Source: an uncultured Calditrichaceae bacterium (GTDB taxonomy: Bacteria > Calditrichota > Calditrichia > RBG-13-44-9 > J075). From it: 64,000 nt of DNA. The stretch is taken from positions 23,394-87,393 of the forward strand of contig CAZFVV010000001.1 of NCBI GenBank assembly GCA_964522165.1, given 5' to 3'. Made by a program: the position numbers and the translations under genes. The notes under the pieces were generated by a model, which saw nothing but the letters and a program-made list of their open reading frames with translations, made no database searches and was not told the DNA's origin. This document shows positions 23,189 through 32,485 of this stretch, piece after piece. Positions within the stretch are counted from its first letter, which is position 1. The number at the start of each line of letters is the position of its first letter.

Positions 23189-23959
23189 CTATTTCCCGGC
23201 CGCCTCTCTCAGGGCGTCGCACATGGAAAATTCGATCTCGAGGTTTTGGCTCTCCATCCACACGGTGATGTAAACCCGGTTTAAACATCCCCAGCCGGTA
23301 TAAGTAAAACGGAAACCGGTGGAAGGGTCTGTTGCGTCATTCTCTTTCCGGGCAAAACTGGGGTGGTTGAAGAAGTAGGTCACTTTTTGAACTTTGCCTT
23401 GAAGCTCCCGGGGAATATCTAACCAGAGGGAAAAATTATAGCGTTTGTCGCCGATTTTGGCATATTCCGTGTTGGGAACCACCCGGTAAACCGCGCCTAA
23501 CACGATCGGGGGGATTTCCCCCGGCGCGGAAATTTCCTGCTGCCAGACCTGCTGCCGCCAATCCCGCCCGGCCAGGTACACGCGCAGCAGATGCCGGCCT
23601 TCTTGCAACCCCTGGAAAGCATAACGCCCGTAAGCGTCGCTGATGCTGGGGCCGAGCCATTTTTTCGATTCCGAATGATAGAGATAGACCTCGTACCCCG
23701 CCAGGGGAATGGGAGCCTTTCCGGAGGCGTTATAGAGGTACAGCGAGCCGGTAACACTCAACGATTCGGATTGGGCCGTTAGCACCCCGCTGCACAGCAG
23801 TAAAAAGCTCACCCAGGCGGCAAGGAAAAAGCGCCCCGGGCGCCGGGTTTCTTTTTGGCGTTCAAATCCGCAGCCGCGCTTGCCTTCCCGGGACATCCCC
23901 CATCCCCGATCAGAAATCATAAATCCTCCATCCGCAATCTTAATCGTGCGTCTCATCAT
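23189..23959 (-). CDS. Secreted hypothetical protein with a carboxypeptidase-regulatory-like (Cna B-type) beta-sandwich
   Basis: A signal peptide comes after a charged N-region. GYEVYLYHSESKKWLGPSISDAYGRYAF resembles a CarbopepD_reg-like fold. The start codon is uncertain. Confidence 0.55.
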   Translation of the reverse strand: MMRRTIKIADGGFMISDRGWGMSREGKRGCGFERQKETRRPGRFFLAAWVSFLLLCSGVLTAQSESLSVTGSLYLYNASGKAPIPLAGYEVYLYHSESKKWLGPSISDAYGRYAFQGLQEGRHLLRVYLAGRDWRQQVWQQEISAPGEIPPIVLGAVYRVVPNTEYAKIGDKRYNFSLWLDIPRELQGKVQKVTYFFNHPSFARKENDATDPSTGFRFTYTGWGCLNRVYITVWMESQNLEIEFSMCDALREAAGK

Positions 23960-23961
23960 GT

Positions 23962-24666
23962 TTACCTCCCCTCCGGCGCTGAGAGCATGGCAGCTTCTTC
24001 CGGCGCGCCCGGCGAGGCCGGCTCTTCCATCTCCGCGCTGAGGCCGGGGGCTTCCGAGGGCCGGTTGGCCACGGTTTCCCCGGCCGGCGGCGCGATGGGC
24101 ATCAAGGTGATCCTCTGTTTCAGGGGGTAATTCCAGCGCCCCGGCTCCAATTTAATGGTTTCTTCTCCCAATTCGGCGTTGGAGAAGGTGACCGTCATCT
24201 GGTTGTTCTGCTTGTCCAGGGAGATGCTGATGGTCAAGGGCGCGTAGTAGAGGCTCTCGAAATTGATGGTCTGGCGCCGCCCGGTATAATTGACCGGCAG
24301 CTCGAACAGCCCGCTCTCTTCGATGCCCATCTCCTTGGGCGCCACGTACACTTTTTTATCCGGGTCTTTTTGAACCTGTCCGGAGAGGGAGATGATTTGA
24401 ACCTCCTGCTGAAGCTGCCAGAAAGAGAATACCGGCAAACCGATGGCCACGATGGCCGCCACCACGTATAATCCCACGATCGGGATGGTGGAGCTGAGCT
24501 TGACCTTGTCGAAGATCTCCAGCCGGATGGCCTCGGCATTCTCGAATTTCTGGGATTTCAGGATATCGCTGATAGTATTTCCCCGCCGGGTGGACAGCCA
24601 GGCCGCGATGCCGGCAAAGAGAATCCCGCTGGCCAGGCAGGAGACTAAAATCCATATAAAATTCAT
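23962..24666 (-). CDS. Hypothetical membrane protein (two TM helices; Pro/Ala/Glu-rich tail)
   Basis: 234 aa ORF, 3 nt upstream of the next gene. Confidence 0.6.
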   Translation of the reverse strand: MNFIWILVSCLASGILFAGIAAWLSTRRGNTISDILKSQKFENAEAIRLEIFDKVKLSSTIPIVGLYVVAAIVAIGLPVFSFWQLQQEVQIISLSGQVQKDPDKKVYVAPKEMGIEESGLFELPVNYTGRRQTINFESLYYAPLTISISLDKQNNQMTVTFSNAELGEETIKLEPGRWNYPLKQRITLMPIAPPAGETVANRPSEAPGLSAEMEEPASPGAPEEAAMLSAPEGR

Positions 24667-24689
24667 AATAAACCTCCGTGAAGGAGGGG

Positions 24690-24830
24690 CACGACAAATT
24701 GCACTGAATTGACTGATTTAATCAACACGCTGAAGCGTGGCAATCTATAATTATTTCGCTTCAGATTGCCTCACTTCAGTGAGCAGTACTCCAAAAATAT
24801 GCAATTTGTCATGCGCCCTGTGAAGGCTCT
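24690..24830. repeat. Second copy of the element flanked by GACAAATTGCACTG ... TGCAATTTGTC; has internal hairpins CTGAAGCG..CGCTTCAG and CTCACTTCAGTGAG
   Basis: Read directly from the sequence; see 21436-21660. Confidence 0.45.
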
Positions 24831-24835
24831 GATGG

Positions 24836-25363
24836 TTAAGAGTAAATTGCCATCCCTTCTTTTATCAAATGCTTATTCTCTTCCGTATTGAATGTTGCCA
24901 CCGGTTTTCCGTTCCGGAGGCAGTCCTGCACCAGCTTTTCAACGTTGCCCCCGGCGGCGGCATGGGCGACAAATACCCGGTCGGCCAAATCCGCCATCAA
25001 GCGGTTGCGCTTCAGCGCCCTTCCCGCGCTGACTCGCCTGACTGTTTCATCAAAAGGGGTAACAATCAGCAGCCGGTTTTCCCGGAGCGCCTGTTTTATT
25101 TCCGGCTCGATGCGCTGCTTTATTCCCCTGGCCAGGGCTAATATAATCGGCTGCCGGCCCTTGAGCAGGTAATGCAGCACGTCTCTCTCGATTTGGGAAT
25201 GAAAACCGGAGATAACGCAATGGCCCTTATCGCGCTGCTCGCTAGCCCAGTCGTAAGCTTTCAGGATAATGTGCGCCGGGCAGGCGCGGGAGCACAGGAA
25301 GGCAATTTTATGGTGCTTCAAAATTTCGGAATTGCCGTAGCTGTAGAAGTGGAAGGGTTTCAT
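24836..25363 (-). CDS. DprA/Smf-like Rossmann-fold (SLOG-type) protein, stand-alone, 175 aa
   Basis: KIAFLCSRACP...VISGFHSQIERDVLHYLL...LALARGI...KRNRLMADLADRVFV follows the DprA core layout (SG...ARGID...RNR). Its start overlaps the upstream PIN-like gene's stop by 4 nt. Confidence 0.65.
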   Translation of the reverse strand: MKPFHFYSYGNSEILKHHKIAFLCSRACPAHIILKAYDWASEQRDKGHCVISGFHSQIERDVLHYLLKGRQPIILALARGIKQRIEPEIKQALRENRLLIVTPFDETVRRVSAGRALKRNRLMADLADRVFVAHAAAGGNVEKLVQDCLRNGKPVATFNTEENKHLIKEGMAIYS

Positions 25364-25695
25364 TCATAAATTTCCATGCACGCTGTTTCTGGATCTGAAA
25401 TAAACTCTTCTATTTCAAGCGAGTGTTTTCGAAGCAATTCTGCAATGACCTCAGTGGGTTGGTTCCCGCATCGCAACCAGATGATCTTTGGGGGCGCGCC
25501 TCTCAGCAGGCTGAGTTCATAGAAATCGGCATCCAGGGTAACGATCACAAAATCGGTTTGGCGGGCGTATTCCCAAATTTGTAAATCTTCCGCGCGCGCC
25601 ATGTTTAACAATCGCACTTGCTGCGATCTGGGAAACATATCTTTCAATGCTGTACAGAGCCGGAAGCTTAGATTTTGGTCAAATAACAACTTCAT
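25360..25695 (-). CDS. DUF5615-family PIN-like protein (usual partner of DUF433)
   Basis: 111 aa. The MKLLFDQNLS start and acidic residues at D6, D48 and D66 match DUF5615. It overlaps the DUF433 gene by 4 nt. Confidence 0.72.
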   Translation of the reverse strand: MKLLFDQNLSFRLCTALKDMFPRSQQVRLLNMARAEDLQIWEYARQTDFVIVTLDADFYELSLLRGAPPKIIWLRCGNQPTEVIAELLRKHSLEIEEFISDPETACMEIYE

Positions 25696-25919
25696 CCAGC
25701 CACAACCCGGGCTTTGTTATGCCGATCCGCGGCAAACGCTAAACAGGCCAGGATGTCGTCTATAGTTAATTCCGGGAAATCCGCTAAAATTTCCTCATAG
25801 GTCATACCGGCGGAAAGCCAGCCTAACACGTCCCCCACGGTGATGCGCATCCCCCGGATACAGGGCTTGCCCCCCCGCTTGCCCGGCTCGATGGTAATAA
25901 TATCTTGATAGCGATTCAT
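25692..25919 (-). CDS. DUF433 domain protein (antitoxin-like)
   Basis: 75 aa. EPGKRGGKPCIRGMRITVGDVLGWLSAGMTYEEILADFPELTIDDILACLAFA is the canonical DUF433. Confidence 0.8.
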   Translation of the reverse strand: MNRYQDIITIEPGKRGGKPCIRGMRITVGDVLGWLSAGMTYEEILADFPELTIDDILACLAFAADRHNKARVVAG

Positions 25920-25948
25920 TTATATTGTCCTCATGCTTTTCAAATTTC

Positions 25949-26149
25949 CTAAACAACTTCAAATTGCAGCTTCTTCAAATTGTTTAATGGGACACGCGCA
26001 GTCACTTTTAAAATTTCGATGCCAACCACATGTTCCTTACCATCAAAATCGAAAATGATACCGTGTTTGATCTCCTCTGACTCGATTATTTTCGATTCAT
26101 CAAAGCAGATGTAGATTGCGTCGGCTTTTTCATCAAACATGACTTTCAT
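25949..26149 (-). CDS. DUF2283 domain protein
   Basis: MKVMFDEKADAIYICF...GKEHVVGIEIL matches DUF2283. Start chosen at the MKV with a GAAGGA RBS. Confidence 0.7.
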   Translation of the reverse strand: MKVMFDEKADAIYICFDESKIIESEEIKHGIIFDFDGKEHVVGIEILKVTARVPLNNLKKLQFEVV

Positions 26150-26386
26150 AGTATATCCTTCATTCATGAAGGGGCTTTCTGTCTTTGGCGGTGTAAATAT
26201 CTTTCTTTTAAAAAATTGACCGGCTAAAAGTTAGCCCGTAACCGGGGAGAATTGCAAGAAGTTTATTACCGCAGATTGGCGATGGGTTTCTGCGGCGTTT
26301 GCATACTAATCAAACAAACTCAACTGGCCGTGATCGTCCAGGGGAAGGTAGCGATAGCGCCTTTTGTTCCAGGCTCCCTCCCCGCC

Positions 26387-27261: not shown

Positions 27262-27354
27262 AAGGCGCATGGCGCAGAGCGCGGAGGGCAGAGCGCAAAA
27301 GGTAATGCGTACGGGGCGTGAAAAGCTTTCTCTATGCGCCATGCGCCATGCGCC
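27262..27354. repeat. GCGCATGGCGCAGAGCGC-family hairpin repeat
   Basis: GGCGCATGGCGCAGAGCGCGGAGGGCAGAGCGC ... TGCGCCATGCGCCATGCGCC; copies also at 29581-29752 and 32370-32485. Confidence 0.6.
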
Positions 27355-28559: not shown

Positions 28560-28735
28560 GTCATTTTTACCCGGCATTACCGGGAAAAACTGTCTCACTT
28601 TTCACTGTTCACCCTTCGACCTGCTCGATTCGTCGTTCAGGCGGGCAAGCTCGGGGCATGTTTTTCACTTCCCATTTTTCACTTTTCATCCCCGCATTCG
28701 CGGGGACAAGCTTTGCACTTTCCACTTCCCTCACT
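28560..28735. repeat. TTTTCACTT-unit repeat region with two C-rich hairpins (CCCGGCATTACCGGG and CCCCGCATTCGCGGGG)
   Basis: Read directly; this is the only copy in the window. Confidence 0.45.
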
Positions 28736-29750
28736 CCTTCCCGCGCACTTCGATGGCGCCCTGGCGCCGGGAGACCCGGTAGGGCGCGCCGAGCAATGCG
28801 TTCTCCAAATGATCCACGAGTTGCCCGGCGCTTTCCGGGAAGACCTGGGGAGAGGGCGCGCCTTCCAAAACACAGTGAACCCGGTTCGCCTCTACCTCTA
28901 CGATCCAGCGGGGCGGGGTGCGGCGCTGGCCGGTTTGCGCGTTGAGATACGCAAAAAGCTCCGCCAGCACCCGGTTTGTTTCCGCAATCCGGCTTTCGAC
29001 CCTTTGCACGATTTCGGGGGGAATGCTCTCCGCGACCGCCGCAGTTCTGCGGTAGATGCGCCAGGAGCGCTCCCGGGATTCATTCGCCAGGTTCGACCAG
29101 CCATAGCGCGGTTCTCCGCCCGGATTTTTGACATACACCCGGCCGCGGTAAGCAAATAAGCGCAGCAGCCGCTCCCCCTTTTCCAGGTAGAATCGCTGCG
29201 CGCGCGGGGTGGATTCGGGCGCAGGATTTTGCGTGATAAACAACGCCTGGTTCGCCAACACCTCTACCGTATCCCGCAGCAGGGTGCAATTATCGAAAAC
29301 CCGGTGGAAACCGATGCGATCCGCGTGCATAAGCTGCCGGCGCTCGTCGGCGAGGAGGAAATAGAGCGAATGGTCGGCCTGCACCTTTATACAGGGAGTG
29401 AATCCGTCGCTCAAATACCCATCGGCGTCTATGATTTGCAAGGGCTGATAGGGTGCCAGGGGGGTTTCCTGCCGGGCATCGATGCGCTGCTGGAATTTGT
29501 CATAAATGACCAGCTCGCGGGGATTTTCAACGGTCAGGAAGTCTGCGGTCTGGGCGGGGAGAAGGCCGCTAAGCGCAAAGAGCAGGGCGCAGAGCGCAGA
29601 GCGCAGAGTGCATGGCGCATAGCGCATGGAGCAAGGAGCAGAACGCAGAGTGCATGGTGCAAAGGGGGAATCGGAGAGCCGGCAGCACGTACGCCCCACG
29701 CTCTGCGCCATGCGCCATACGCTCTGCGTCATGCGCTTTGCTCCCCTCAC
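28731..29750 (-). CDS. Hypothetical secreted protein. The first roughly 40 codons, including a plausible signal peptide (LCALLFALSGLLPAQTADF), are encoded by the GCGCATGG repeat.
   Basis: Long ORF. A believable start is the ATG near 29624 (MRYAPCTLRSALCALLFAL...). Confidence 0.5.
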   Translation of the reverse strand: MRGAKRMTQSVWRMAQSVGRTCCRLSDSPFAPCTLRSAPCSMRYAPCTLRSALCALLFALSGLLPAQTADFLTVENPRELVIYDKFQQRIDARQETPLAPYQPLQIIDADGYLSDGFTPCIKVQADHSLYFLLADERRQLMHADRIGFHRVFDNCTLLRDTVEVLANQALFITQNPAPESTPRAQRFYLEKGERLLRLFAYRGRVYVKNPGGEPRYGWSNLANESRERSWRIYRRTAAVAESIPPEIVQRVESRIAETNRVLAELFAYLNAQTGQRRTPPRWIVEVEANRVHCVLEGAPSPQVFPESAGQLVDHLENALLGAPYRVSRRQGAIEVRGKE

Positions 29751-32369: not shown

Positions 32370-32485
32370 CGCATGGCGCATGGCGCAGAGTGCATAGCGC
32401 ATAGTGTAGAATTTTCATACGCCACAAGCCCTGCCCCATGCGCTCTGCTGTATGCTCTATGCGCCACGCGCTTTGCGCTATGCTA
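32370..32485. repeat. GCGCATGGCGCAGAG-family hairpin repeat
   Basis: GCATGGCGCATGGCGCAGAGTGCATAGCGCATAG ... CATGCGCTCTGCTGTATGCTCTATGCGCCACGCGC. Confidence 0.6.

Follow-up and report, generated by a model that had tools for sequence, protein, structure and literature searches.

A probable mosaic of toxin-antitoxin modules and a displaced DprA-like gene at a variable site of a Calditrichaceae-type chromosome

Results

Gene content and surroundings of the block

The window analyzed here, a stretch of 64,000 nucleotides from an uncultured Calditrichaceae bacterium, contains in its ORF listing four small, tightly packed ORFs on the minus strand, between positions 24836 and 26167. Two Calditrichaceae-type relatives, designated L002 and L003, carry the block at the same place. 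The features of the locus are as follows.

24667-24835, intergenic spacer 3' of the DprA-like gene (43.8% GC; part of an 18-nt inverted repeat)
24836-25363, minus strand, DprA-like ORF (175 aa)
25360-25695, minus strand, DUF5615 ORF (111 aa)
25692-25919, minus strand, DUF433 ORF (75 aa)
25949-26167 as called mechanically (72 aa), probably 25949-26149 (66 aa, with the ATG at 26149 as start), minus strand, DUF2283 ORF
26150-26167, minus strand, deletion scar of a lost DUF4258 gene (putative toxin)
25300-26165, DUF2283, DUF433, DUF5615 and the 5'-most ~60 nt of the DprA-like gene, a segment that underwent recent exchange with the L003 lineage

Read from the sequence, the four genes are joined by two 4-nt ATGA overlaps and separated by one 29-nt gap. 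All four ORFs match their Pfam families above the gathering score. Both the packing and the four domain calls (DUF2283, DUF433, DUF5615 and DprA) of an earlier, sequence-only reading of this DNA were thus confirmed. The arms of the inverted repeat, found by a repeat search, lie at 24686-24703 and 24800-24817 and are 89% complementary. An identical block of 1563 nt is also present in an independent Logan read assembly.

It had been proposed that the block is lower in GC than its flanks and interrupts a peptide ABC transporter operon, between permease and ATPase genes. Both statements stood in part. Relative to the window mean of 54.3%, GC content is low in DUF2283 (37%) and DUF5615 (45.5%), but not in DUF433 (54%) or the DprA-like gene (53.6%). 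Third-position GC forms a gradient across the four genes, from 0.46 in DUF2283 through 0.50 in DUF5615 and 0.62 in DUF433 to 0.665 in the DprA-like gene, the flanks being at 0.72 to 0.81. As to the site, the double ABC ATPase is a solid assignment, but the two 'permeases' had no Pfam match, the Pfam match to SBP_bac_5 was below threshold (E = 0.0028), and the block is separated from the ATPase by two further non-transporter genes, one for a 234-aa protein and one for a pYEATS protein.

The boundary of a mobile element could not be defined, since no tRNA was found in the whole window, no Rfam match between 23000 and 28000 (spacer 24667-24835 included), no direct repeats flanking the block, and no promoter or terminator signal above shuffled expectation. 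Carriage by plasmids or phages is likewise unsupported, as no homologue of the 175-aa protein was found in plasmid and phage collections.

The DUF433-DUF5615 pair

DUF433 (COG2442) and DUF5615 (COG4634) are both well recognized: DUF433 matches its Pfam model over the full length (E = 7.8e-26, 90.1 bits for a cut-off of 23.6), and DUF5615 over profile positions 1 to 109 of 110 (E = 7.6e-36, 122.8 bits for a cut-off of 23.8). The DUF5615 protein of the window keeps all the positions that are conserved in 90% or more of 77 homologues, including D6, D37, D55, D57 and E108, which are the likely catalytic residues, and the toxin gene is apparently intact. The two genes lie on the same strand, antitoxin gene first, and the stop of DUF433 overlaps the start of DUF5615 in the ATGA at 25692-25695.

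A survey centered on DUF5615 was carried out on 80 metagenome loci of its relatives. Of 73 loci, 67 had DUF433 directly upstream; together with the full-length domains and the overlap, this bears out the prediction that the two genes form a toxin-antitoxin (TA)-like pair. A DprA-like gene was found downstream of DUF5615 in none of 52 relatives among these metagenome loci. DUF2283 was detected at none of the 80 loci, a weak figure because the local DUF2283 model was built on four near-identical sequences.

Pairs of the PIN-COG2442 kind have been predicted to be TA modules (PMC2701414). As in the window, an upstream DUF433 gene of ~75 codons overlaps a PIN-like gene of ~110 codons in these VapBC-like modules; full-length domains, conserved acidic residues and pairing in relatives all match as well, and nothing distinctive was found in the window pair. 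Related examples are VapBC10 of Synechocystis, a validated PIN-COG2442 pair (PMC3834315), and VapBC45 of M. tuberculosis, placed in the related PIN_10 cluster (PMC5499597), the comparison being drawn at the level of PIN-COG2442. COG4634 has been described as a PIN-like toxin of the Mut7-C group, and restriction-modification operons can contain embedded TA pairs (PMC5499597). A literature search for DUF5615 jointly with DUF433 returned no paper. We conclude that DUF433-DUF5615 is an ordinary two-gene VapBC-like type II TA module of a known kind. DUF5615, a PIN-like nuclease of the Mut7-C group, would be the toxin; DUF433, a three-helix DNA-binding protein, would neutralize it and presumably autoregulate the operon.

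A putative orphan antitoxin

DUF4258 and DUF2283 are regarded, from family annotation, as the toxin and the antitoxin of a TA pair; no paper describing them as such was found in a literature search. In the window, DUF2283 is recognized by Pfam (E = 1.5e-14, 54.3 bits for a cut-off of 23), and no DUF4258 gene lies beside it. In L002, by contrast, DUF4258 is present: a gene for 89 aa (Pfam E = 1.2e-17) overlaps the DUF2283 start by 4 nt. Bases 2773-3005 of L002 are without counterpart in the window, the junction being at window positions 26165/26164, so that the loss of DUF4258 corresponds to a 233-nt deletion relative to L002. The DUF2283 orthologues of L002 and L003 are 66 aa long and start with MKVLFDE; the additional 'MNEGYT' at the 5' end of the mechanical ORF is accounted for by the deletion scar at 26150-26167. 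The absence of the usual DUF4258 partner, already remarked upon from the sequence, was thus corroborated, and DUF2283 is a putative orphan antitoxin, from the DUF4258-DUF2283 pair. It would be the survivor of a second module whose toxin gene was removed by the 233-nt deletion.

Decay and divergence in the two relatives

The TA genes are in different states in the two relatives. In L002, DUF4258 is intact, DUF433 has a 1-nt frameshift and DUF5615 is deleted (313 nt, window positions 25378-25690). In L003, DUF5615 is frameshifted by a 2-nt deletion at 25598-25599, and a HicB-like remnant is also present. The DprA-like gene is intact in both. Both genomes were assembled from metagenomes, and the two single-gene frameshifts may be artefacts of assembly; this is less likely for the 313-nt and 233-nt deletions.

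Divergence from L003 is unequal along the block. The three TA genes are approximately 99% identical (dS 0 to 0.04), while dS is 0.34 for the DprA-like gene and 0.23 to 0.41 for the flanks. Identity is 97 to 100% in each 60-column bin fully inside 25300-26165, compared to 82 to 92% in what remains of the DprA-like gene and 85 to 90% in the flanks; the breakpoint falls close to 25300, some 60 nt into the DprA-like gene. We conclude, from this one pairwise comparison, that DUF2283, DUF433, DUF5615 and the 5' end of the DprA-like gene were recently exchanged with the L003 lineage, and that the DprA-like gene is under purifying selection (dN/dS = 0.21 against L003).

A short DprA-like protein

The 175-aa protein matches Pfam PF02481 (DNA_processg_A; E = 6.6e-12), and its best PADLOC matches are the antitoxins PsyrA (E = 1.2e-18) and ShosA (E = 1.1e-6), in the central domain only (positions 117 to 291 of the 398 of the PsyrA profile). 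A fold search was required, as sequence searches of the PDB gave spurious MST4 matches alone and no DprA chain with the family profile, and marginal ShosA matches alone (E = 1.5) with the single sequence. With the AlphaFold model (pLDDT 94.6) as query, the PDB entries ranking highest were H. pylori DprA, ShosA and S. pneumoniae DprA; LOG, MCP and YpsA came next. The Foldseek E-value was 2e-11 to 4ljr, and TM scores were 0.75 to 0.80 to DprA and ShosA (0.80 to ShosA 8zva, normalized to the 175-aa query model). The protein is thus a stand-alone Rossmann domain of the DprA/SLOG type, as had been called from the sequence.

The DprA-type fold is common to this protein and to the antitoxins of ShosTA and PsyrTA, but the window protein covers only their central domain, its sequence similarity to the solved ShosA is marginal, and no PRTase or RecQ-like partner gene accompanies it: neither of the two neighboring gene products, DUF5615 and the 234-aa protein, matched ShosT (PRTase) or PsyrT (RecQ-like helicase). 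Membership of either system was rejected for want of this partner. Members of the family share an invariant pattern of their own (C24, S25, Y37-D38-W39, S52-G53, H55-S56, E59 and D61). Judging from DprA and ShosA, the protein would probably function as a dimer and bind single-stranded (ss) DNA, possibly RecA as well.

The family at the end of restriction operons

A homology search recovered more than 2400 short DprA-like homologues of the 175-aa protein. The window protein scores 250.6 bits against a family HMM built from 80 loci, and is 87 to 97% identical to its two syntenic relatives and 55 to 71% identical to non-syntenic members. Among the 46 loci having at least 3 kb of upstream sequence, 30 had an SNF2 and a IIG gene upstream of the DprA-like gene on the same strand; at other loci HsdR, ResIII or other nuclease-helicases were found there. 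When loci were chosen through the IIG gene, a DprA-like gene of the same family was downstream in five of six. Of the two operon genes, one encodes an Eco57I/MmeI-like type IIG methyltransferase (PADLOC REase_MTase_IIG, PDLC03628) and the other a PLD/SNF2 helicase that resembles the models 'HKD+Snf2' and DrmD. Cultured isolates with a complete operon of this type include Thermaurantimonas aggregans, Pedobacter changchengzhani and Desulfonema magnum. A literature search on DprA-like proteins beside type IIG or SNF2 genes gave nothing specific, and the three-gene arrangement was not found. The window protein belongs to a family that usually closes PLD/SNF2 and type IIG operons, but the window itself differs: tblastn with SNF2 and IIG proteins found neither gene in the 64 kb, so that its DprA-like gene appears as a displaced member.

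The position just upstream of the DprA-like gene holds variable cargo, including Fic, RhuM, Schlafen-like and AbiEi/AbiEii genes. These families match the PADLOC candidate-defence models PDC-S04 and PDC-S05, or form complete TA pairs, as do AbiEi/AbiEii. The cargo is often joined to the DprA-like gene by an ATGA overlap, and the DprA-like start overlaps or abuts upstream genes of at least seven sequence clusters and ten unclustered neighbors. The overlap with the PIN-like gene, which had been taken as translational coupling of these two genes, is thus not special to them; members of the DprA-like family tend to be coupled in this way to any gene that happens to precede them. Exceptions to the arrangement are two solitary DprA-like copies (L162 and L165) and one locus (L171) where further accessory genes, HSP70-like and UvrD-like, sit after the DprA-like gene and not before it.

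In the nearest relatives with IIG context (L004 and L163), AbiEi/AbiEii immediately precede the DprA-like gene; the AbiEii stop of L004 shares an ATGA overlap with the DprA-like start. A TA pair directly upstream of closely related DprA-like genes therefore recurs: AbiE in these two loci, DUF433/PIN in the window. This recurrence could reflect functional coupling and not a passive slot.

Discussion

The separate gene neighborhoods, the decay of toxin genes in relatives, the unequal divergence from L003 and the family context of the DprA-like gene lead us to propose, with a probability of roughly 80%, that the block is composed, mosaic-like, of three independent units and occupies a variable site in a Calditrichaceae-type chromosome. 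In this proposal, the DprA-like family gene is normally the last of a PLD/SNF2 helicase-nuclease and type IIG operon, and the slot just upstream of it accumulates unrelated accessory or defence genes, TA pairs included. In the window lineage the DprA-like gene would be an old resident held by purifying selection, the restriction genes having been lost or never present, and the TA cargo upstream would have been replaced recently by recombination, with one breakpoint in the 5' end of the DprA-like gene. Shown by the data are the genes present, their states of decay, their histories and the contexts of the families; that the toxins are toxic and how the DprA-like protein acts biochemically are inferred.

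A different role for the DprA-like protein can be imagined, although we hold it to be unlikely: the short DprA-like proteins may be a conserved third component of PLD/SNF2 and IIG operons, acting in the manner of ShosA as a general safety device or sensor tied to ssDNA and RecA, and serving whichever toxic effector lies upstream (the type IIG enzyme, AbiEii, Fic or the PIN-like protein). The link to DUF5615 in the window would then be functional though unconserved. The many gene families that the DprA-like start overlaps or abuts, and the resemblance to PsyrA in sequence and to ShosA in sequence and fold, are in keeping with such a role. ShosA neutralizes its toxin by way of ssDNA and RecA and does not bind it (PMC12961424), which makes a partner-independent antidote conceivable. 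Yet the DprA-like gene persists without an upstream effector in L002 and in the solitary copies, the further accessory genes of L171 follow it, the cargo consists of families that match candidate-defence models or of complete TA pairs, and DUF5615 already has an antitoxin of its own, DUF433.

Less probable still is the sequence-only proposal that the four genes are one undescribed TA or defence cassette. The DprA-like protein would then be a sensor or second antitoxin, translationally coupled to the toxin of the PIN-like type, with DUF2283 as a supplementary regulator. The tight packing with ATGA overlaps, the PsyrA and ShosA models as best defence-database matches, and a gene order shared by two relatives speak for it. 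Against it, the parts differ in age (dS 0 to 0.04 for the TA genes, 0.34 for the DprA-like gene), and DUF2283 had a partner of its own, DUF4258. The DprA-like gene does not appear to work with the PIN-like gene, since the latter is deleted or frameshifted in L002 and L003 while the former is intact and under purifying selection. Conservation of DUF5615 and the DprA-like gene as neighbors had been set in advance as a check; among 80 genome loci, adjacency was limited to the window, the Logan contig identical to it, and L003. The combination did not extend beyond one syntenic locus in a single narrow clade, that of the window and its two close relatives, and the metagenome survey placed no DprA-like gene behind DUF5615. 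Synteny of the block in relatives, which that proposal had counted against itself when joined to host-like GC and codon usage, is observed in L002 and L003. The neighborhood and divergence data thus largely refute the cassette.

That the 175-aa protein might be a housekeeping DprA paralogue, merely beside TA genes, is scarcely credible. Canonical DprA/Smf is a recombination mediator in natural transformation; the Rossmann core, the PF02481 match and the top structural matches to H. pylori and S. pneumoniae DprA are shared with it, but the protein reaches 38.7 bits with the TIGR00732 equivalog model, whose cut-off is 191.15, lacks the SAM and C-terminal flanking domains, has its own invariant pattern, retrieved no DprA chain from the PDB by family profile, and belongs to a family found in restriction and defence islands and not in competence loci, so that its assignment as a canonical DprA was rejected.

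Had the cassette been borne out, a new defence or TA system of several genes would have come to light. As a probable mosaic, the locus is a patchwork of ordinary TA modules at different stages of decay beside a displaced accessory gene. It would provide a worked example of toxin-first decay, with two toxins each lost or inactivated in a different lineage, and would also illustrate how recombination with its anchor in a conserved neighboring gene replaces cargo. The DprA-like family as the near-constant last gene of PLD/SNF2 and type IIG operons is a by-product of the analysis that may outweigh the original finding: this restriction-linked family offers a concrete handle on the roles of DprA-like domains in restriction and defence.

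Identity of the four genes

The ORF list, two ATGA stop/start overlaps and one 29-nt gap, the latter features read from the sequence, confirm four consecutive, tightly packed genes on the minus strand:

24836-25363, minus strand: DprA-like ORF, 175 aa (Pfam DNA_processg_A, E 6.6e-12)
25360-25695, minus strand: DUF5615 ORF, 111 aa (Pfam E 7.6e-36)
25692-25919, minus strand: DUF433 ORF, 75 aa (Pfam E 7.8e-26)
25949-26167, minus strand: DUF2283 ORF, 72 aa (Pfam E 1.5e-14)

An identical 1563-nt copy of this block, with the same four called genes, is present in a Logan read assembly of a different data set. All four proteins belong to known families. The 175-aa protein has a confident predicted fold (pLDDT 94.6), for which a fold search gave H. 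pylori DprA, ShosA and S. pneumoniae DprA as top solved-structure matches, followed by LOG, the Moco carrier protein and YpsA, of the SLOG superfamily. The domain assignments of the sequence-only reading (DUF2283, DUF433, DUF5615, DprA/SLOG) were therefore correct, as the four Pfam matches exceed the gathering score and the fold matches are of the DprA/SLOG type. A housekeeping competence DprA was excluded: the protein scores 38.7 bits against an equivalog cut-off of 191, is without the flanking domains and lies in the wrong context.

Decay and divergence in relatives

Two metagenome-assembled genomes align collinearly with the window: L002 (WYBG01000138, labelled Deltaproteobacteria) at about 90-97% nucleotide identity and L003 (JABWBP010000043, Calditrichaceae MAG_33) at about 85-93%. 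The block lies at the same position in both. L002 holds an intact DUF4258/DUF2283 pair, in which an 89-aa DUF4258 gene (Pfam E 1.2e-17) overlaps the DUF2283 start by 4 nt. The window is without exactly the 233-nt stretch of L002 holding this gene, and the odd 'MNEGYT' 5' extension of its DUF2283 ORF is the scar of that loss. In L002, DUF433 has a 1-nt deletion and a clean 313-nt deletion (window 25378-25690) takes out the DUF5615 gene; in L003, DUF5615 is split into two ORFs by an internal 2-nt deletion. Upstream of DUF2283, L003 has a third toxin-antitoxin (TA) remnant at the same spot:

L003:4805-5062: HicB-like ORF, 85 aa; its N-terminus resembles a HicB antitoxin, and a short part of its C-terminus resembles HicA

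Both relatives keep an intact DprA-like gene. The differences in content indicate two TA modules next to a stable DprA-like gene; each module has lost its toxin, or had it inactivated, in a different lineage. L003 also carries a 143-nt insertion between DUF2283 and DUF433 (L003:5275-5425), which the window does not have; judged by eye, it looks palindromic and MITE-like, with CCACAGAG-type repeats.

The four genes do not share a common history. Against L003, dS was 0.23-0.41 for flanking genes and 0.34 for the DprA-like gene (dN/dS 0.21), but 0-0.04 for DUF2283, DUF433 and DUF5615, with about 99% nucleotide identity. In a binned alignment, this high-identity stretch spans window 26165 to about 25300, and hence stops about 60 nt inside the DprA-like gene. 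The pattern was reversed against L002, where dS was 0.20 for DUF2283 and 0.08-0.10 for the flanks. From these contrasts, we conclude that the TA genes are exchangeable cargo of recent date; the DprA-like gene has long been resident and is under purifying selection.

Base composition and surroundings

The low GC content ascribed to the block holds for DUF2283 (37%) and DUF5615 (45.5%, window mean 54.3%), but not for DUF433 and the DprA-like gene, which are not clearly under that mean. GC3 is below that of the flanks (0.72-0.81) in all four genes, and its gradient, from the TA genes (0.46-0.62) through the DprA-like gene (0.665) to the flanks, agrees with the split between recent cargo and old resident.

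Of the peptide ABC transporter operon proposed as the insertion site, the double ABC ATPase is solid, whereas the SBP_bac_5 match is sub-threshold and the Pfam search gave no match for the two supposed permeases. Two unrelated genes, also carried by L003 and without a match in PADLOC, separate the block from the ATPase:

23189-23959, minus strand: pYEATS-domain (prokaryotic YEATS) protein, 256 aa (pYEATS E 1.6e-12)
23962-24666, minus strand: 234-aa protein with a hydrophobic N-terminal stretch

Two more genes separate the weak SBP_bac_5 gene from the genes for membrane proteins, so that the supposed operon is interrupted at two places:

28731-29750, minus strand: hypothetical protein, 339 aa
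29747-30403, minus strand: Uma2-family putative endonuclease (Pfam E 2.8e-33; PADLOC candidate PDC-S03, E 3.3e-31; GC 47.5%)

An 18-nt sequence recurs exactly at window 27264-27281, 29699-29716 and 32370-32390, near the 5' ends of the genes for a 303-aa membrane protein, the 339-aa protein and the SBP-like protein, which may thereby have a regulatory or repeat element in common. An 18-nt inverted repeat (24686-24703 and 24800-24817, 89% complementary, 96 nt apart), without a match in Rfam, has one arm in the spacer just 3' of the DprA-like gene and the other at the spacer's far end, at the next gene's start.

Partners of DUF5615

Seen from either side, DUF5615 and the DprA-like gene are not conserved neighbours. 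Among 80 genome loci fetched with the family alignment of the DprA-like protein, the only ones in which local HMMs detected an adjacent DUF5615 gene were the window, its Logan twin and L003. Conversely, among 80 metagenome loci of the closest DUF5615 relatives (49-65% identity), no DprA-like gene lay downstream in the 52 whose downstream sequence reached 600 nt or more; DUF433 was directly upstream in 67 of 73, and DUF2283, whose model is weak, was near DUF5615 in none of the 80. The window DUF5615 has lost none of the highly conserved residues, five acidic ones among them, and the DUF433/DUF5615 module appears to be functional and to need no further partner. Published work agrees: PIN-COG2442 has been predicted to be a TA (PMC2701414), with VapBC10 as a validated pair (PMC3834315), and COG4634 is a PIN-like toxin family of the Mut7-C group, TA pairs being at times embedded in RM operons (PMC5499597). 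DUF433 also recurs without DUF5615 in islands of the DprA-like family, as a 120-aa protein (L163:8967-9329) just 3' of the DprA-like gene that ends an SNF2-IIG-GmrSD-AbiEi-AbiEii series, and as an ORF in the cargo region of L020.

A restriction-linked DprA-like family

More than 2400 homologues of the DprA-like protein, 150-185 aa long, were found; the 120 with the highest scores span many phyla and share 56-97% identity with it. When neighbours were clustered in the 80 genome loci and representatives annotated, a recurrent order emerged: first an SNF2 helicase, whose full-length copies carry a PLD nuclease domain; next an Eco57I/MmeI-like type IIG methyltransferase (IIG) of about 1100 aa (PADLOC PDLC03628, E values as low as 0); then variable genes, from none to several; and the DprA-like gene closing the operon on the same strand. 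Examples among L004-L081, L163 and L166-L171 are:

L053:27-6465: operon of this type
L167:3644-12921: operon of this type

IIG/SNF2 genes were upstream in 30 of the 46 loci with at least 3 kb of upstream sequence; some of the others had HsdR, ResIII helicases, helicase-MTES_1575 nuclease or SMC-like ATPases instead. The variable genes included KilA-N, Schlafen/AlbA_2, Fic-Bro (PDC-S04), RhuM (PDC-S05), YhcG/DUF1016, PDDEXK_3, DUF3800, GmrSD and AbiEi/AbiEii. As an unbiased check, six long contigs were examined from a search begun with the IIG protein: all six had PLD-SNF2 and IIG, and in five a DprA-like gene of the same family followed downstream, with 0-3 cargo genes in between.

Across the family, the upstream gene is on the same strand in 59 cases, and in 28 of these the DprA-like ORF start overlaps or directly adjoins it; the neighbours concerned belong to the IIG/SNF2, Fic-Bro, RhuM and YhcG groups and to three other clusters, and ten are unclustered. 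Among the IIG-context relatives, those closest to the window protein (L163, 68%; L004, 70%) have the AbiEi/AbiEii TA pair directly upstream, and L004 shows an ATGA overlap between the AbiEii stop and the start of the DprA-like gene. The ATGA coupling of DUF5615 to the DprA-like gene in the window is thus a habit of the slot upstream of such genes and does not speak for a specific partnership. The window contains no SNF2 or IIG gene, and solitary DprA-like copies also occur elsewhere (L162, L165).

Interpretation

Beyond the gene content, decay states, histories and contexts observed, we infer that DUF5615 would be a PIN-like nuclease toxin checked by DUF433, which would also repress its operon, that DUF2283 would be a harmless leftover antitoxin, and that the DprA-like protein would work independently of the TA genes. 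By analogy with DprA and ShosA, the latter is probably a dimeric ssDNA-binding protein and possibly interacts with RecA. Within SNF2-IIG operons, its candidate roles include moderating self-restriction and acting on ssDNA.

A modular reading, in which the DprA-like protein would serve as a general safeguard or sensor for any upstream effector, DUF5615 included, is weaker and has a low probability. It draws on the recurring coupling and on ShosA, which as an antitoxin depends on dimerisation, on binding ssDNA and on contact with RecA, but does not have to bind its toxin (PMC12961424). However, the DprA-like gene persists without any upstream effector, DUF5615 possesses its own antitoxin, and the cargo families match PADLOC candidate-defence models (PDC-S04, PDC-S05) or are complete TA pairs such as AbiEi/AbiEii. 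That the four genes form a single system, as first proposed, is essentially refuted by the synteny and decay in relatives, the dS split, the pairing counts and the DprA-like family context.

What the four genes form is a mosaic particular to this lineage rather than a system. No description of a restriction-linked short DprA-like family with a cargo slot, the variable position directly upstream of its gene, was found in the literature searched, which leaves its novelty unproven; this family and its slot are the notable by-product of the analysis.
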